Virus record (IMG/VR): IMGVR_UViG_3300011113_000492
Location: 32,001-96,000 of that record
Strand: one strand, 5' to 3'
DNA length: 64,000 nucleotides
Source: a virus
In this document: positions 2,679 to 38,733 of the stretch, piece after piece
How the letters are laid out: every line of letters starts with the position of its first letter
Position numbering within the stretch: position 1 is the first letter of the stretch
The notes under the pieces: model-generated
Seen by the model: the letters and a program-made list of their open reading frames with translations, nothing else
The model's database searches: none
What the model was told of the DNA's origin: nothing
Translations under genes and position numbers: made by a program

Positions 2679-3503
2679 ATGGACACAAAACTTCAAGTAT
2701 TTGGGGGCCTGGGATTCGTTGGCTCCAATTTTGTTAAACAATATCCCGATGTTATAGTCAATGATCGCAATGATTACACTGTAAAATCCAAAAATATCTT
2801 ATATCTAATCAGTACCATTAGCAACTATAATATGCTCACAGACCCGTATGTGGATATTAATACCAATTTAACCACATTAATGCGTGTACTAGAACAATGC
2901 AAGGATCAGGATGTAACATTTAATTTTGTCAGCAGTTGGTTTGTCTATGGGGACACTGAAATGCCTGCTCAGGAAAACAGTCCTTGTAGGCCAACTGGAT
3001 TTTATAGTATAACAAAAAAAGCAGCAGAAGATTTATTAGTCTGTTATGCCAAAGTTTTTAATATCAAATATAGAATATTACGGTTAGCAAATGTAGTAGG
3101 CCCAGGCGATCCAAAAGCCAGCCTACAAAAAAATGCACTGCAATTTTTAATCAACGAAATTAAAGACAACAAGGATATCAAAATCTACGATGGTGGTAAT
3201 ATGTATAGGGATTATATGCATGTCATTGACGTAGCAAGAGCAATTAAATTAGTGATAGACCAGGGAGATATTAACACTGTATATAATATCGGTAACGGAA
3301 AGCCTATTAAGTTTAAAACTATAATCGAATACGCACACACCATTACCAATAGTTCCGGAAGATTGATTAACATCGAACCTCCCGAATTTCATAAAATTGT
3401 TCAAGTTCATAGTATGTTTATGAACACAGAAAAATTAAAAAAATTGGGGTACAAGCCTTTGTATTCTATGGAACAGATTGTGGAAGACATGATTCCTCGC
3501 TAA
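2679..3503 (+). CDS. NAD-dependent epimerase/dehydratase (extended SDR)
   Basis: GGLGFVGS dinucleotide motif, SSWFVYG, YSITK (YxxxK), RDYMHVIDV; start set to ATG 2679. Confidence 0.9.
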   Translation: MDTKLQVFGGLGFVGSNFVKQYPDVIVNDRNDYTVKSKNILYLISTISNYNMLTDPYVDINTNLTTLMRVLEQCKDQDVTFNFVSSWFVYGDTEMPAQENSPCRPTGFYSITKKAAEDLLVCYAKVFNIKYRILRLANVVGPGDPKASLQKNALQFLINEIKDNKDIKIYDGGNMYRDYMHVIDVARAIKLVIDQGDINTVYNIGNGKPIKFKTIIEYAHTITNSSGRLINIEPPEFHKIVQVHSMFMNTEKLKKLGYKPLYSMEQIVEDMIPR

Positions 3504-4881: not shown

Positions 4882-6936
4882 ATGAATCATAAACTTAAAA
4901 AACTATTGTTAAGTCCCTGGACTGCGCTGTTAACATTAGCACTTATTTTAAGTATAAGAATTGCCGATCCCGCTTTTATAGAAAGTGTGAGATTAAGATA
5001 CTTTGACACTCTTATCACACAAAAAACTTCTACGGACAACAATATATACACAGTCAATATAGATGAATCTAGTCTAGAAAAGTACGGCCAATGGCCATTA
5101 CCGAGGACAGAATATGCGAAAATTATTCAAGACCTTTATGCTCGCAATGCTGGCCTTGTTGTTCTCAATGTTCTTATGGCTGAGCCTGATCGTACTGGTG
5201 GAGATGGCGATCTTAGTGCCATACTTAAAAAGTATCCTGTAGTATTAGGTTCTGTGCCTAGTAACAAAACAAAAAATGAGCCGCGAGTTCCTGGATCAGC
5301 GGTCCTAGGCCCAGAATGGATGGACCAAATCGTTACATATCCAGGACTGATTGCCAACGTTCCTAAATTAGAAAATAATGCCGCAGGGGTCGGTATAGTG
5401 AACACACTACCAGAAGTAGACGGTGTTAATCGCCGTGTTCCTTTAATTGTAACTGTTGATGGAAAACTATATCCCGGACTGGCATTGGAAACATTGCGTG
5501 TGGCTACAGGCAATGACACATTTCAAGTTAAGTTATTCGAAGGAGGCGTTGAGAAAATGCGATTGCCTGGAGAAGTTGGAGTCATCAACACAGACAATCT
5601 TGGTCGCATATGGATTGATTGGAGCCAACAGAATAAATCGGTTAGCTTAACAAACTTACCAAAAGATTTTAATCGTGCTATTGTTGTAGTAGGACCCACT
5701 GCCGCTGGTATTGCTAATCCGATTCCAACTAGTAAAGGTGCAATATTTCCGCATGATGTACAAGCTGGCGTAATTGCTACAATAGCTAACGGTGTTGTTA
5801 TTCAGCGTCCGGACTATGCGGATGGCTTAGAAATTATTGCTATTGCAGTTTCGGGATTGTTATTACTGTTTTTAACAAGGTGGACTTATGTTGGACTTGC
5901 GTCGGTTATTGTATTGGTCGCTGGCGGTATTGCTGGCAGTTACTATGCTTACAGCAACTTTTTATTCTTATTTGACAGTACTGCCTTTGCAGTTAGCACA
6001 GTCCTGGTCGCTTTGCATGCCTACGGTGTCAAGTTTGTCTCAGAGTTCTTACAAAAGCAGGCCATAAAGAAACAATTTGCTGGCTACTGCTCAAAAGAAG
6101 TAGTGGAGATGTTACAAAAAGATCCGGACTTAATCAAGCGTGGTGTGCGTAAAGACGTATCGGTCATGTTCAGTGACCTACGTGGCTTTACACCTATCGG
6201 CGAACACTACGGAGATGATGTTGCTGGACTGGGCAAATACATGAATGGTTACATGGACAGCATCAGCAAGCCTATCATGGATAACAAAGGCATGGTCATC
6301 AAATATGTAGGTGATGCAAGTATGCACATACATGGTGCTCCTATTGAAGATCCCGACCACGCTCGCACTATCGTTAAGGTAGGATTAGAAATGTTAGATG
6401 CTGTTGACGAGTATACCAAGCTGATGGAAGCACAGGGCTTACCACCAGCCGCCATGGGCTGGGGTTGTAACACAGGTATTGGCTTTATTGGCGAGATGGG
6501 CAGCACTGATAGACACAGCTATGACATTTTGGGTGACATGGTTTCAACTGCGGCACGACTAGAAGCACGTTGTAAGGCCTATGGTGTGTTGGCTATCATT
6601 GGTGCTGAAACATATAATAGAACTAAAGACGACTTCTTCTATTTGTTGTTGGACAACTTACAACCTAAGGGAAAGACCGTGGCAGACTTAATCTATACAG
6701 TGATACGACCACGTGGTGAAGATTACAGTAAAGATCGAGAACAACACGAAGCAATGCATGCCTTGTATAAGGCTAAGAAATTTGACGAAGCTGCCGCTAT
6801 GTGTAAGAAGATGAAAGGTACCTTCGGTGGACAAATGGACAAGTACTACAAGATATGGATTGAACGCTGCGAATTTATGAAGCAACAGGATTTAGGTCCA
6901 ACTTGGAACGGCGAATTTATAGCGCACGAAAAATAA
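4882..6936 (+). CDS. CHASE2-domain membrane adenylate cyclase (class III)
   Basis: N-terminal TM, CHASE2-like region (VNIDESSLEKYGQWPLPR), 3 TM helices, MFSDLRGFT, KYVGDA, YDILGDMVSTAARLE. Confidence 0.9.
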   Translation: MNHKLKKLLLSPWTALLTLALILSIRIADPAFIESVRLRYFDTLITQKTSTDNNIYTVNIDESSLEKYGQWPLPRTEYAKIIQDLYARNAGLVVLNVLMAEPDRTGGDGDLSAILKKYPVVLGSVPSNKTKNEPRVPGSAVLGPEWMDQIVTYPGLIANVPKLENNAAGVGIVNTLPEVDGVNRRVPLIVTVDGKLYPGLALETLRVATGNDTFQVKLFEGGVEKMRLPGEVGVINTDNLGRIWIDWSQQNKSVSLTNLPKDFNRAIVVVGPTAAGIANPIPTSKGAIFPHDVQAGVIATIANGVVIQRPDYADGLEIIAIAVSGLLLLFLTRWTYVGLASVIVLVAGGIAGSYYAYSNFLFLFDSTAFAVSTVLVALHAYGVKFVSEFLQKQAIKKQFAGYCSKEVVEMLQKDPDLIKRGVRKDVSVMFSDLRGFTPIGEHYGDDVAGLGKYMNGYMDSISKPIMDNKGMVIKYVGDASMHIHGAPIEDPDHARTIVKVGLEMLDAVDEYTKLMEAQGLPPAAMGWGCNTGIGFIGEMGSTDRHSYDILGDMVSTAARLEARCKAYGVLAIIGAETYNRTKDDFFYLLLDNLQPKGKTVADLIYTVIRPRGEDYSKDREQHEAMHALYKAKKFDEAAAMCKKMKGTFGGQMDKYYKIWIERCEFMKQQDLGPTWNGEFIAHEK

Positions 6937-21288: not shown

Positions 21289-21879
21289 ATGCCCAATTTT
21301 GTACCAACAGTGCTAGAAAAGACCAGCAACGGTGAGCGAGCCTATGACATTTACAGCCGATTGCTTAAAGATCGTATTGTGATGTTAGACACTGATGTCA
21401 ATGAACACAGTGCCAGTCTTGTAGTAGCGCAAATGCTATTTTTAGAAAGCGAAAATCCCGACGCAGATATCTTATTTTATATTAATAGCCCGGGCGGTGT
21501 AGTGACTGCTGGTATGGCTATCTATGATACTATGCAATTCATTAAACCCGAGGTGTCCACAATTGTCATGGGACAAGCATGTTCAATGGGCAGTTTATTG
21601 GCACAGGCGGGGGCGCCAGGAAAAAGACTAATGTTGCCCAATGCGCGACACATGATTCATCAGCCCAGCGGCGGAGCTCGAGGGCAGGCCACTGACATGT
21701 TGATTCAAGTTGAAGAAATTTTGTCAATGAAACGAAATTTAACCAATATCTATGTAAAGCATAACAGTGCATCTAAGACATTTGATGAATTGACTGCGGA
21801 CATGGAGCGAGATAATTTTATGAGCGCCGAACAGGCCGTTACATATGGATTAGCAGACAGTATTGTTGAACGTAGATAA
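21289..21879 (+). CDS. clpP: ATP-dependent Clp protease proteolytic subunit
   Basis: [27 protein letters not shown] (Ser), MIHQP (His), ERDNFM (Asp). Confidence 0.97.
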
Positions 21880-35079: not shown

Positions 35080-35199
35080 TAAATATTTGACACACAGATA
35101 ATGGCTAGGTGAAACATCTCAAAGAAGTCAACATGGGATATTTCTAAAGGTTTTAGTAGTGGCAGACTTAAATCAAGTATGTTGCAAAAAAGTATAGTA

Positions 35200-35562
35200 G
35201 TTTAACGCTTCGATAGAAAGAAGTTCTGGACCCGGCTAGCATATGCCGGCAGGTCCACCAAGTATGCTAGTCCGGTAGCGATAGTGTGAGTGACTACAGT
35301 CTTGTGCGAGTCAAGACCATACCTGATGGGCCTGAAAAGATTCGACAGGGCAACAAGTATTGACAAGATCTACTCGGCAATGTAGAAGCCGTTAGGATTG
35401 GGGTCACCCGGTCGAAGACACACAAACCGTAAATGCAAAAGCATCTACATCTGGTAGCTTCAAGTTCAGCGGAAAAGGCGTAAAGCTTGCTTCTGCTCGT
35501 CGTGAAGCTGTATTGGCCTAAGTAGCCAAACCCGGGGTTGGTAACCTTGTAACTCAATAACC
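35200..35562 (+). ncRNA. ssrA: Circularly permuted (two-piece) tmRNA; outer boundaries approximate
   Basis: Acceptor piece ends CAGGTCC-ACCA at 35260; coding piece starts GGGCCTG at 35328 (7-bp stem with G3:U); GATTCGAC follows; AGGGC/GTTCT and TATTGA/TCGATA pairings; tag ORF 35435-35521 AKASTSGSFKFSGKGVKLASARREAVLA*. Confidence 0.88.
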
Positions 35563-35567
35563 TAATT

Positions 35568-35587
35568 AGGACCTTCGGGTCCTTTTT
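35568..35587 (+). terminator. Rho-independent terminator after tmRNA
   Basis: AGGACC-TTCG-GGTCCT-TTTT. Confidence 0.85.
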
Positions 35588-35607
35588 ATTTGTTCGAATG
35601 TTCGAGA

Positions 35608-35667: not shown

Positions 35668-36675
35668 ATGAAAAAAATCACAGCATTTATTAGTGCATTA
35701 CTAATTTCTACATCTGCATTTAGTGCAGACATTACCGGTGCAGGTGCAACATTCCCTTTCCCAATCTATGCTAAATGGGCAGAAGCATATAAAAAGGCCA
35801 CTGGCACAGGTATGAACTATCAAAGTATTGGCAGTTCAGGTGGCATTAGACAAATCAATGCTAGAACTGTGGATTTTGGTGCAACTGATGCTCCAGTTAA
35901 AGGTGAAGACCTAGACAAGCAGGGTCAAGTTCAGTTTCCTGCTATCATTGGCGGAACAGTGCCAGTGGTAAACCTAGATGGTTTTAAACCAGGCGAACTA
36001 CGCATCACCGGACCAGTTATGGCCGAAGTGTTCATGGGAACTATTTCTAAATGGAATGATCCTAAACTGGTAGCATTGAATCCAGGCAAGATTCTGCCCA
36101 ACACAGAAATCACTGTGGTTCATCGTGCTGATGGTAGTGGCACAACATTTAACTGGACAGATTATCTTACTACTGTGAGTCCCGAGTGGGAGAAGCGTGT
36201 GGGTCGTGGTGCCGCAGTTAAATGGCCAGCAGCCACATCGGTAGGTGGCAAAGGCAACGAAGGTGTTGCTGCTAATGTGAACAGAATTAAAGGTTCGATC
36301 GGTTATGTAGAGTATGCTTATGTTAAAAAGAACAACATGACATTTCTACAACTACAGAATAAAGCAGGTCGATGGGTAAGTCCAGATGACTTAACATTTG
36401 CCGCAGCAGCAGATGGTGCTGATTGGTTTAGTGTTCCAGGCATGGGATTGAGTATTGTGGATCAGCGTAATCCTAATGCGTGGCCAGTGAGTTCAGCAAG
36501 TTTCATCATCATGTACAAAGAGCCAAAGAACAAAGCTGCCAGCGATGAAGTATTAAAGTTCTTTGATTGGGCATTTAAGAATGGTAAGAAGATGAGTGAG
36601 GAATTAGATTATGTACATTTACCTACCGTATTACAAGATCAGATTCGTCAGCGAGTTTGGAGCCAGATAAAGTAA
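35668..36675 (+). CDS. pstS: Phosphate ABC transporter substrate-binding protein
   Basis: ITGAGATFPFPIYAKWA, YQSIGSSGG, DFGATD, HRADGSGTT, IGYVEYAY. Confidence 0.97.
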   Translation: MKKITAFISALLISTSAFSADITGAGATFPFPIYAKWAEAYKKATGTGMNYQSIGSSGGIRQINARTVDFGATDAPVKGEDLDKQGQVQFPAIIGGTVPVVNLDGFKPGELRITGPVMAEVFMGTISKWNDPKLVALNPGKILPNTEITVVHRADGSGTTFNWTDYLTTVSPEWEKRVGRGAAVKWPAATSVGGKGNEGVAANVNRIKGSIGYVEYAYVKKNNMTFLQLQNKAGRWVSPDDLTFAAAADGADWFSVPGMGLSIVDQRNPNAWPVSSASFIIMYKEPKNKAASDEVLKFFDWAFKNGKKMSEELDYVHLPTVLQDQIRQRVWSQIK

Positions 36676-36718
36676 ACCGACCACAAAGATAGAGTGGCGC
36701 TGGAACTCGTAACCAGTA

Positions 36719-36742
36719 TAGGACCTATAGGGTCCTATTTTT
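36719..36742 (+). terminator. Rho-independent terminator after pstS
   Basis: TAGGACC-tatag-GGTCCTA + T tract. Confidence 0.8.
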
Positions 36743-36757
36743 ATTTCAACGGGTACA

Positions 36758-36775
36758 TTGTAATAATCTTGTAAC
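36758..36775 (+). promoter_or_regulatory. Pho box upstream of the plcP-like gene
   Basis: TTGTAAT and TTGTAAC 11 bp apart. Confidence 0.6.
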
Positions 36776-36807
36776 ACTGAGACGCAACATTTACAGTAAA
36801 TATGATT

Positions 36808-37701
36808 ATGTCAACACAACCTAAAACTTATCGAAGTATTTTTATCAGCGATGTTCATTTAGGGACTAAAGACAGTCAAGCGGACAAGTTAAACAACTTT
36901 CTCAAACACAATACCTGCGACACGCTATATCTAATAGGCGACATCATCGACGCTTGGCGTATACAACAAAACAAGTGGCGTTGGAAACAAAGCCATACCA
37001 ATGTGGTCCGTCGTGTGCTAGGACATGCTAAACGAGGCACTCGGGTGGTTTATGTAGCAGGTAATCATGATGAGTTCCTACGTCCAATGATACCTTACGG
37101 GTTCAGTTTTGGTCTAGTAGAAATACACAATCAAATTGAACATATAGGTGCTGACGGTAAACACTATCTAGTCACTCATGGCGATTTGTTTGATGGTATT
37201 ACTAGACTAGCACCTTGGATCAGTTTTTTAGGCGACAAGGCCTATGACTTTGTCTTAATGTTAAATGCTAAATTCAATTGGTTCAGACACAAAATGGGAT
37301 TTGGTTATTGGAGTCTATCAAAGTATCTAAAACATCGCGTTAAAAAAGCTGTAGATTTTATGTTTCAGTTTGAAAAGAATCTAGCAGGCTATTGCAAGAA
37401 GCGTGGTTTTGATGGAGTGATCTGTGGGCACATACATCACGCAGAAATTAAAGAAATAGACGGGGTAACATATATGAATGACGGCGACTGGGTTGAATCA
37501 TGTACTGCACTAGTAGAGCATTGGAACGGCCGTTGGGAGATAGTAATTTGGACCAAGGAGAGAGATGATGTGGATAATGATACTGCTAGCGATTCATTCA
37601 AAAAATCCAAACGACATCCCAGGAAGAATAACGCTGACATTCCCGGACCAGGTATCGTGCGAATCGGTGCTCAAGACGATGTCGTATCAACTAAAGTTTG
37701 A
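36808..37701 (+). CDS. plcP: PlcP-like phospholipase C (LpxH-like metallophosphoesterase)
   Basis: FISDVHLG, LYLIGDIIDAW, GNHDEFLR, HGDLFD, ICGHIHH, YMNDGDWVESCTAL; adjacent GT4 gene; alternative start 36802. Confidence 0.75.
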   Translation: MSTQPKTYRSIFISDVHLGTKDSQADKLNNFLKHNTCDTLYLIGDIIDAWRIQQNKWRWKQSHTNVVRRVLGHAKRGTRVVYVAGNHDEFLRPMIPYGFSFGLVEIHNQIEHIGADGKHYLVTHGDLFDGITRLAPWISFLGDKAYDFVLMLNAKFNWFRHKMGFGYWSLSKYLKHRVKKAVDFMFQFEKNLAGYCKKRGFDGVICGHIHHAEIKEIDGVTYMNDGDWVESCTALVEHWNGRWEIVIWTKERDDVDNDTASDSFKKSKRHPRKNNADIPGPGIVRIGAQDDVVSTKV

Positions 37702-37744
37702 AAGTTTTAAGGTAGTAGGCGAATGCAAAAAACAATTCTCATAG
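37565..37744 (+). CDS. 59-aa overlapping ORF with hydrophobic N-terminus (not in ORF track)
   Basis: AAGGAG at 37555-37560; MMWIMILLAIHSKNPNDIPGRITLTFPDQVSCESVLKTMSYQLKFESFKVVGECKKQFS*. Confidence 0.6.
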   Translation: MMWIMILLAIHSKNPNDIPGRITLTFPDQVSCESVLKTMSYQLKFESFKVVGECKKQFS

Positions 37745-38733
37745 TAACAGACAATTTACCGGAGCAGATCAATGGCGTGGTTACGACCTACAAAAATATT
37801 GAGGTTATGGCGGTTCTCAACGGTTATCGTGTTGTTTATCTTGATCCCGGGCGGTTCCGCTATGTTGATTGCCCTGGCTACAACGAAGTCAAGATTGCCT
37901 TTCCCCGGAAAGTGGGCCAGATACTTGAGGAGATCAATCCGGATCATATCCACATCGCCACGGAGGGTCTTGTGGGTCTGCGTGTTAGACAATATCTTGA
38001 CAAACACGGTTATCGCTACAATACTGCTTATCACACTAAGTTTCCAGAAGGAATTAAGAAGCTGTTTGGAATACCTGAGGCCCTTACTTGGCCTTTAGTG
38101 CGTTGGTTTCATAAGCATAGCGGCAAGGTGTTAACCACCACAGACTCAATGGTCAAGGAGCTACAACAACATGGATTTGATGGAGATATTGTATCTTGGA
38201 CAAGAGGTGTTGATAGGAACATTTTCTATCCTAGCGATTCTTTTACTAACACTGGCATTCTCTTGTGCGTTAGTAGAGTTTCTAGAGAAAAAAACTTAGA
38301 AGATTTTTTTAAACTAGACTACCCGGGTTATCGTAAAGTCATGGTGGGTGATGGACCTATGTTGGAAACATATCAATATCAGTACCCTGATGTTGAATTC
38401 GTGGGTTATAAAACTGGTAAAGAATTGGCTGACTACTATAGACAAGCTGATGTATTTGTATTCCCTAGCCATTGGGAGACATTTGGTATAGTTATGATTG
38501 AGGCAATGGCCTGCGGTACTCCGGTCGCAGCATATCCTGTACAAGGTCCCCTGGATGTAATAGACCAAAATATAACTGGTTGTATGAATGATAATCTGAT
38601 TCAAGCAATCAATGACGCAATCTTGCTTGATCGACGAAAAGTTTGGAATGGCAGTCACCGTTGGAGCTGGAGTCGAGCTTGGGAAATTTTTAGAGATAAT
38701 TTAATTGAAAAATCTTCTACTAGAATCAATTGA
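37723..38733 (+). CDS. GT4 glycosyltransferase, Agt-like (diacylglycerol glycosyltransferase)
   Basis: IVTDNLPEQINGVV, HIATEG, YHTKFPE, WTRGVD, SRVSREKN, FPSHWETFGIVMIEAMACGTPV. Confidence 0.8.
   Translation: MQKTILIVTDNLPEQINGVVTTYKNIEVMAVLNGYRVVYLDPGRFRYVDCPGYNEVKIAFPRKVGQILEEINPDHIHIATEGLVGLRVRQYLDKHGYRYNTAYHTKFPEGIKKLFGIPEALTWPLVRWFHKHSGKVLTTTDSMVKELQQHGFDGDIVSWTRGVDRNIFYPSDSFTNTGILLCVSRVSREKNLEDFFKLDYPGYRKVMVGDGPMLETYQYQYPDVEFVGYKTGKELADYYRQADVFVFPSHWETFGIVMIEAMACGTPVAAYPVQGPLDVIDQNITGCMNDNLIQAINDAILLDRRKVWNGSHRWSWSRAWEIFRDNLIEKSSTRIN

Follow-up and report, generated by a model that had tools for sequence, protein, structure and literature searches.

Why phages carry genes for transfer-messenger RNA (tmRNA) is an open question, and IMG/VR virus record IMGVR_UViG_3300011113_000492 raises it in a pointed form: what becomes of the products of stalled ribosomes when a phage tmRNA encodes a tag unlike the canonical one? 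We analysed bases 32001–96000 of this 123,081-bp record (CheckV completeness 35%), a stretch of 64 kb called here the window, in which an earlier note, made from the letters alone, had recognised a circularly permuted tmRNA gene with a long, unusual tag. Phage two-piece tmRNA is a kind of gene already published; new here are a family of long basic tags, its frequency and its link to the Clp genes that the phage itself encodes. Overall, we lean slightly towards a working two-piece tmRNA whose tag is a retained handling or degradation signal with a shifted reader, ClpA being favoured over ClpX or SspB. The lineage offers a natural experiment: sister phages with near-identical tmRNA bodies carry four tag types (canonical ANDxxFALAA, LLAANA-ending and two long basic ones), and their genomes encode ClpP, ClpA and ClpS and vary in ClpX, so that the link between tag and choice of protease is directly testable.

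By its sequence, the gene is very probably a real, functional tmRNA. In a scan of the window with Rfam 15, the sole match above gathering score was RF04321 (tmRNA_permuted), located at 35196–35462 on the + strand and spanning the full length of the model (positions 1–213); it scores 63.3 bits (E = 7e-10), where the cut-off is 47. As the earlier note had read it, the 3′ acceptor half, which runs to 35260, comes before the 5′ half, which starts at 35328, with a 67-nt spacer between them, and the gene is followed by a terminator (35568–35583 and a T-run). The two pieces form an acceptor stem of 7 bp (GGGCCUG/CAGGUCC-A-CCA) in which G3:U70 is present; the letters directly after GGGCCTG are AAAAGATTCGACAGGG. 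The paired ends of the spacer lengthen this stem in the precursor, and a minimum-free-energy fold of 35190–35440 forms both the T-arm and the spacer-extended acceptor stem, as expected for a permuted precursor.

In order to assess the helices, relatives were collected by exact matching to the T-arm and acceptor sequence, which gave 16 IMG/VR contigs, 14 of them with a permuted tmRNA by Rfam, and an alignment of 17 unique genes was scored against the helices of the window. The acceptor stem is 100% paired with three pairs changing on both sides, and the alanine determinant G3:U70, correctly noted before as intact, occurs in 17/17. The T-stem (100% paired, four of five pairs compensatory) and the inner P2 (P2a; 100% paired, with compensatory changes) are equally well kept, and the outer P2 exists in four covarying versions: AGUAG/CUACU in the window, UGCUGU/ACAGCA, GACUGU/ACAGUC and UGUUG/CAACA. 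The pre-tag hairpin at 35396–35413 is 100% paired in all seven sequences having it, with two compensatory pairs; the hairpin around the stop codon occurs as UUGGC/GCCAA, AUGGC/GCCAU and CUAGC/GCUAG; and the post-tag hairpin covaries to GGGGCA/UGCCUU and GGGGUA/UACCUU in relatives.

A pseudoknot-like element made of TCTAC, CGGC, GTAGA and GCCG had been described in the earlier note. These letters are present, and the CGGC..GCCG hairpin at the PK1 position is widely kept, the 22-nt element there (CGGCAANGTAGAAGCCGTTAGG) recurring in at least 119 IMG/VR contigs; the pseudoknot as drawn, however, is not supported. As a second stem, UCUAC/GUAGA is 29% paired among the relatives with no compensatory change, and five of them (L009, L021, L034, L036 and L040) have the same CGGC-AAUGUAGAA-GCCG hairpin with ACAGUC replacing UCUAC, which cannot pair with GUAGA. 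Since ACAGUC pairs with the acceptor piece as P2 in these relatives, UCUAC is a strand of P2. No loop partner for the hairpin was established by comparison.

Of the two kinds of search that had been proposed as a check, covariance models recovered the gene, but ARAGORN called no tmRNA on the window, probably because of the 8-nt T-loop. Loops that depart from UUCGA (UAGCAUAU or GGCAGUG) occur in the window and in L009, L021, L033, L034, L036, L038 and L040, while other members of the family have canonical UUCGA T-loops, and genes with the GGCAGUG loop carry the D-loop analogue GGAUCGAUUGGG in place of GGUUUCGACAGGG, which suggests a co-adapted elbow. ARAGORN finds only two of the nine genes with such loops in the 17-gene alignment (L018 and L033). 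Because it failed on the window and on 14 of the 23 family loci submitted to it, censuses of phage tmRNA that rely on ARAGORN likely undercount this family.

The tag is in all likelihood translated as it had first been read, from GCA at 35435 to TAA at 35519 (28 residues). The resume context is GUAAAU|GCA, and in relatives whose tags are canonical (ANDEQFALAA, ANDSQFALAA and similar) GCA follows GUAAAC or GUAAAU. In addition, ARAGORN calls a permuted tmRNA with the same long tag and resume codon in five homologues with more ordinary T-loops (L018, L020, L022, L033 and L037). The tag is long, basic (net charge ∼+5) and non-canonical, as described earlier: it lacks the A-N-D start and ends in V-L-A, which is non-polar but not Ala-Ala. 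For the 41-residue stop-to-stop frame that holds it, no longer natural protein containing the peptide was found, and by this search there is no sign that the tag was copied from the C-terminus of a protein.

We refer to this long tag as type 1. A scan with its FKFSGKGVK core yielded six more contigs from IMG/VR and 13 from metagenomes. Rfam, run on the viral contigs, finds a permuted tmRNA in each of them, and the metagenome contigs show the tag together with CCACCA acceptor-strand or TCGA motifs of the tRNA-like domain wherever upstream DNA is present. More than 20 type-1 loci provide fourteen unique tag DNAs, which all stay in frame at lengths of 27, 28 or 29 codons, the shorter and longer variants differing by whole codons, and follow the consensus A-[KTN]-A-[SN]-T-x-G-[SG]-F-K-F-S-G-K-G-V-K-[LIF]-[AS]-[SA]-x-[RA]-R-E-A-[VI]-[LM]-A, with a C-terminus that is always hydrophobic-hydrophobic-Ala (VLA, ILA or VMA). 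A scan anchored on the C-terminal half revealed no new middle variants. Outside the codons of the search pattern, variable columns number 9/4/11 at codon positions 1/2/3, and substitutions are mostly third-position or conservative. The window tag is identical at the protein level to those of L021, L027, L034 and L039, from which its DNA differs by synonymous changes only. The frame thus appears, from these comparisons, to be under selection at the peptide level.

How common such tags are was estimated with a scan that is blind to the tag, using the 22-nt element at the PK1 position; the contigs retrieved, at least 119, gave 123 parsed genes. Among the parsed genes listed, 102 have short tags (10–14 residues), nearly all canonical (ANDSQFALAA in 30, ANDEQFALAA in 16, and others), and several short tags end in LLAANA or similar, that is, LAA plus two extra residues (ANDSQFLLAANA, ANDSQFLQAVNA). 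Long tags comprise eight genes of type 1 and eight of a second type, together ∼13%, or roughly one in eight, of these related IMG/VR tmRNAs (at least 119). Type 2 consists of ANANTGEVTVSGKNVKFSARTAQRQTLAV and variants (29 aa); Rfam found a permuted tmRNA in all four type-2 loci run, and its variable columns number 3/2/10 by codon position, with a pN/pS (ratio of non-synonymous to synonymous polymorphism) of 0.26. Both types share the motif hydrophobic-x-hydrophobic-S-G-K-x-V-K-hydrophobic-[SA], encoded differently in each: serine is AGC in one and TCA in the other, and 16 of 33 core bases are identical. Since the core is kept with different codons, the comparison points to selection acting on the long-tag peptide. 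The loci listed for type 2 are L091, L097, L107, L122, L145, L160, L172 and L173, and those for LAA-plus-two tags L063, L085, L148 and others.

The core motif was also sought in one genome per species for 185,579 species of bacteria and archaea; it occurred twice, by chance and in neither case in a tmRNA, and by these searches the tag family is so far confined to phage-like contigs. The tag strings were not found in literature full text or in the supplementary files of the papers on the tmRNA database and on Melnitz, and among 50,697 phage records megablast and blastn detected nothing similar to the region.

The phage origin of the gene, claimed from the start, is borne out by its surroundings. 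Methylophilales phage Melnitz has a protein with 45% identity to the one encoded at 4882–6936 of the window, and for a protein of Pelagibacter phage HTVC008M the figure is 38%; ORFs (open reading frames) on nearly all of the fetched tmRNA-bearing loci have homologues in the present record; and near-complete relatives with homologous tmRNA genes measure 320–353 kb, one of them, the largest (352,754 bp), having direct terminal repeats and a rating of 100% complete. Contig names of relatives include TARA Oceans scaffolds. On the strength of these shared genes we conclude that the carrier is a jumbo-phage lineage from aquatic metagenomes and that the tmRNA gene is phage-borne. Pfam models for T4 gp23 and portal gave no match in the 123-kb record, but the control was equally silent, which makes this result uninformative.

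We turn next to the Clp genes. The record encodes ClpP, ClpS and a ClpA-like protein (Table 1). The last matches TIGR02639 over its full length with 827 bits, below the curated cut-off of 993, and carries two Walker A/B pairs as well as an IGF loop with which to dock to ClpP. Neither the record nor the 97%-complete type-1 relative G001 yielded an SmpB gene, and SspB was not found in the phage record. A ClpA-like and a ClpX-like gene are both present in each of four further genomes of the lineage with a completeness of 92% or more, three of which carry canonical tags and one a type-2 tag; G001 has ClpA only and no ClpX. The order of genes in the canonical-tag genome G002 and the type-2 genome G020 is [∼540 aa]-ClpX-[∼150 aa]-ClpS, and in the three type-1 genomes (G000, which is the present record, G001 and G004) the ClpX slot is taken by a glycosyltransferase-like gene, accompanied in G000 and G004 by a methyltransferase gene.

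How the RNA would act can be outlined as follows. One precursor can form the acceptor stem extended by the paired spacer ends, and host tRNA-processing enzymes would excise the spacer, leaving an acceptor piece that ends in CCA at 35260 and a coding piece that begins with G at 35328, the two joined by P2 and the acceptor stem. Host alanyl-tRNA synthetase would charge the RNA via G3:U70, host SmpB and EF-Tu would deliver it to stalled ribosomes, and translation would resume at GCA 35435, adding alanine plus 28 residues. The tag would be this phage lineage's replacement of the ANDxxFALAA of its sister phages: its hydrophobic A-V-L-A end may be engaged by a Clp-type unfoldase, ClpA of the phage or of the host, and its basic core F-K-F-S-G-K-G-V-K may act as a second determinant for some further partner. 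As the A-N-D start is lost, delivery of tagged proteins by an SspB-type adaptor seems unlikely.

In E. coli, a C-terminal LVA is about as good a ClpXP degron as LAA (PMC10862746), and together with the hydrophobic-hydrophobic-Ala end this precedent keeps degradation of the tag a live possibility; on the available sequences we consider the chances of the tag still being a degron to be evenly balanced. That it is read mainly by the phage's ClpAP is a narrower claim, which we make tentatively and with considerable doubt. We are just as hesitant about a broader scenario, in which this ∼340-kb aquatic phage lineage swapped an ssrA-type tag for a private 28–29-residue basic tag, possibly hairpin-forming, that is read by a phage-controlled partner (ClpA/ClpS/ClpP or another adaptor); the phage, not host ClpXP/SspB, would then handle stalled products, and the loss of ClpX would be part of the switch. 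In favour of a re-routed fate are the occurrence of the tag family on phage-like contigs only, the apparent selection on its peptide, and the presence of ClpA, ClpP and ClpS without ClpX in the type-1 phages examined.

Several observations weigh against a working tmRNA with a Clp-read tag. The T-loop is non-canonical (8 nt, without UUCGA), its stem itself being intact and covarying; the gene has the lowest Rfam score in its family; no clear promoter was found for it; and the support for both tmRNA function and tag fate is at the level of sequence. The type-1 pN/pS is only 0.54, comes from a motif-biased sample and includes last codons that are also constrained by a hairpin. ClpA-like genes also accompany canonical tags (in G003 and others) and so are not specific to long tags, and the long tag and the absence of ClpX, seen together in three related genomes only, may go back to one evolutionary event. 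Finally, E. coli ClpS inhibits degradation of ssrA-tagged proteins by ClpAP, and the phage carries a ClpS.

The alternative that survives best, which was the reading preferred in the earlier note and which we rank second and regard as rather improbable, is that the tag is not a degron at all and that rescue is uncoupled from proteolysis, the tag leading instead to stabilisation, to nucleic acid or membrane binding through its basic core, or to sequestration. The charge of the tag and the lack of both A-N-D and Ala-Ala would suit such a role, as would the absence of ClpX from the type-1 phages examined, and the LLAANA-ending tags of the same phage family suggest repeated pressure away from a plain ClpX degron. 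Nevertheless, the hydrophobic-hydrophobic-Ala end is kept in all type-1 variants, LVA-type ends being efficient ClpXP degrons in E. coli (PMC10862746), the phage devotes genes of its own to ClpA, ClpP and ClpS, and the search with the 41-residue frame found no natural protein that carries the peptide as a localisation signal.

Conservation of the peptide also bears on a second alternative, namely that the RNA mainly competes with host tmRNA, titrating SmpB or occupying stalled ribosomes and so blunting host quality control or abortive responses, with a tag of little consequence. The tmRNA of mycobacteriophage DS6A, reduced to the tRNA-like domain, and the inhibition of tmRNA by such molecules (PMC4131195) provide a precedent, and no phage smpB was found. 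A decoy, however, needs neither a tag conserved as a peptide in two sub-families, nor length changes by whole codons, nor a stop-codon hairpin kept by compensation, and we consider this explanation very unlikely.

The gene of the window is a mosaic. In the acceptor piece, P2 and the PK1 region it hardly differs from L011, L004 and L006, which have canonical tags, and the part that begins shortly before the resume codon and runs up to the terminator matches L009, L021 and L034. Directly upstream, and overlapping the first bases of the tmRNA gene, lies the relic of a SegE-like GIY-YIG homing endonuclease gene (35144–35205). The upstream endonuclease ORF is intact in L004, L011, L017, L150 and L175; that of L011 (4197–5072, 291 aa) matches Pfam SegE_GIY-YIG and ends inside the first tmRNA bases. 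The conserved upstream block at 35144–35195 was considered as a 5′ extension or promoter, and this was ruled out, the block being the coding end of the endonuclease gene. It is plausible that endonuclease-driven exchange between co-infecting phages would have caused the mosaic gene and the tag swap.

Such an origin, with the endonuclease relic adjoining the gene, its mosaic make-up (5′ half like L011/L004, tag half like L009/L021), its low Rfam score and the ARAGORN miss, could also mean that the window copy is a decaying or passenger gene, moved by homing-endonuclease recombination and without present function. We find this hard to credit: all helices are intact, the protein sequence of the tag is identical to that of L021, L027, L034 and L039 with synonymous differences only, and the odd T-loop is common to L009 and resembles those of L006 and L012. 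Equally hard to credit is that the 84-nt 'tag' is conserved as RNA structure and is untranslated from GCA 35435, a view for which the last codons inside a conserved hairpin, the complementarity of the PK1-position loop to codons 4–6 and the high nucleotide identity among type-1 tags might speak, but which leaves unexplained the GUAAAU|GCA context known from canonical-tag relatives, the third-position bias (9/4/11 and 3/2/10 in types 1 and 2), the length variants by whole codons and the core motif kept with different Ser codons between sub-families.

The complementarity just mentioned involves the loop AAUGUAGAA (35379–35387) and UCUACAU of tag codons 4–6 (35444–35450). L018 and L022 have another loop at this place, GUAGAUG, which matches CAUCUAC in codons 3–5. 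Such matches may be fortuitous, or they may reflect long-range pairing by which the beginning of the tag is hidden.

Our preferred reading, a working two-piece tmRNA with a Clp-read tag, can be placed among known systems. The list of carriers of two-piece tmRNA given in the earlier note (alphaproteobacteria, some cyanobacteria and a few betaproteobacteria) omitted published phage cases: Buchholz et al. (2022; PMC9004378) described the ssrA of Melnitz and 53 two-piece calls in 18,146 phage genomes, of which 50 were aquatic. Al-Shayeb et al. (2020) reported huge phages that carry tmRNA and SmpB. Melnitz, which like the pelagimyophages belongs to the aquatic T4-like myophages, resembles the present phage in having a permuted tmRNA on a large aquatic myophage-type genome, in shared genes and in a match of its ssrA to the same Rfam model, RF04321 (113 bits). 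This ssrA, however, is found by ARAGORN and encodes the canonical tag ANDNYVPVDYALAA, whereas the window gene was missed by ARAGORN, encodes a 28-residue basic tag and has an 8-nt non-canonical T-loop and an extra pre-tag hairpin. Unlike Melnitz, the 64-kb window has no glutamine riboswitch by Rfam.

In the betaproteobacterial (RF01850) and alphaproteobacterial (RF01849, Caulobacter ssrA) forms, as in the window, the acceptor piece is followed by the spacer and then the coding piece, G3:U70 and P2 are present, the PK1 position holds one element, the 3′ pseudoknots are reduced and the stop codon sits in the loop of a hairpin; their carriers are bacterial with ANDExFAxAA tags, whereas the present carrier is a phage and its tag unrelated. 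Two close phage relatives (L002 and L008) reach 147 bits on RF01850 and other relatives pass RF01849, so that the alpha or beta subtype is ambiguous. The window itself scores 38 bits on RF01850, below the gathering threshold of 84, and no RF01849 match was listed for it up to an E-value of 10, one lower-scoring same-clan match having been left out of the list.

Long ssrA tags also exist in Mycoplasma and Mesoplasma, where they are acidic or polar and bacterial, in contrast to the basic, phage-borne tag of the window. These tags (∼27 residues) are off the LAA rule, occur in organisms with a different set of AAA+ proteases and, as Gur and Sauer reportedly found in 2008, their protease has been switched to Lon. 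The apparent protease change in the type-1 genomes is another one, phage ClpX being absent and ClpA, ClpP and ClpS kept.

Table 1. Positions of the tmRNA gene, its parts and associated genes (window numbering unless a record coordinate is given)
Feature	Position	Strand	Sequence or basis
Whole circularly permuted (two-piece) tmRNA gene	35196–35591	+	Rfam and comparative alignment
Acceptor piece	35196–35260	+	Rfam alignment, covariation in 17 unique relatives
P2 3′-side strands in acceptor piece	35196–35200, 35210–35213, 35222–35228	+	
T-arm	35232–35249	+	CCGGC / 8-nt loop UAGCAUAU / GCCGG
Acceptor 3′ strand	35250–35256	+	CAGGTCC
Discriminator and encoded CCA	35257–35260	+	A + CCA
Intervening segment	35261–35327	+	67 nt, no ORF; ends pair AAGUAUG / CAUACCU
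Coding-piece start	35328–35374	+	acceptor 5′ strand GGGCCUG 35328–35334; D-loop analogue AAAAGAUUCGAC
P2 5′-side strands, end	35370–35374	+	CUACU
Hairpin at PK1 position	35375–35391	+	CGGC-AAUGUAGAA-GCCG
Clade-specific hairpin	35396–35413	+	GAUUGGG-GUCA-CCCGGUC; insertion relative to Rfam model
Tag reading frame	35435–35521	+	GCA 35435 to TAA 35519–35521, 28 codons, AKASTSGSFKFSGKGVKLASARREAVLA
Hairpin with stop codon in loop	35513–35529	+	UUGGC-CUAAGUA-GCCAA
Post-tag hairpin	35534–35548	+	GGGGUU-GGU-AACCUU
Intrinsic terminator	35568–35591	+	AGGACC-UUCG-GGUCCU (35568–35583) and U-run
SegE-like GIY-YIG homing endonuclease gene relic, 3′ end	35144–35205	+	20 codons and TAA, in frame; alignment with L004, L011, L017, L150, L175
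clpP	21289–21879	+	196 aa; Ser/His/Asp motifs present
ClpA-like gene	G000:C1:108600–110894		764 aa; same record, outside window
ClpS gene	G000:C1:27623–27937		same record, outside window

The spacer showed two further features. Its start (35261–35275) is approximately the reverse complement of the 5′ strand and loop of the T-arm (35232–35244); the T-arm still forms in the minimum-free-energy fold despite this, and L009, which has the same T-arm, is without such complementarity. Many relatives have small ORFs with a Shine-Dalgarno sequence in their spacers (L020 of G001, L021, L027, L039, L040, L011 and L044, which is Melnitz, at 1570–1700), examples being an ∼84-aa ORF of membrane-type appearance, one for a 38-aa hydrophobic peptide, an ∼85-aa Cys-rich one and a 38-aa one with two Cys pairs; the 67-nt spacer of the window is without such an ORF.

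Directly 3′ of the tmRNA gene, at 35668–38733, are pstS, a metallophosphoesterase gene and a GT4 glycosyltransferase gene, and many long-tag loci resemble the window in having pstS no more than a few kb away from the tmRNA. On a related phage contig (L004, 8396–8470), ARAGORN predicts a tRNA with anticodon CTA, an amber reader. In L015, a GOLLD RNA (2968–3431; Rfam, 200.8 bits) lies near the tmRNA, within an array of ∼20 tRNA genes.

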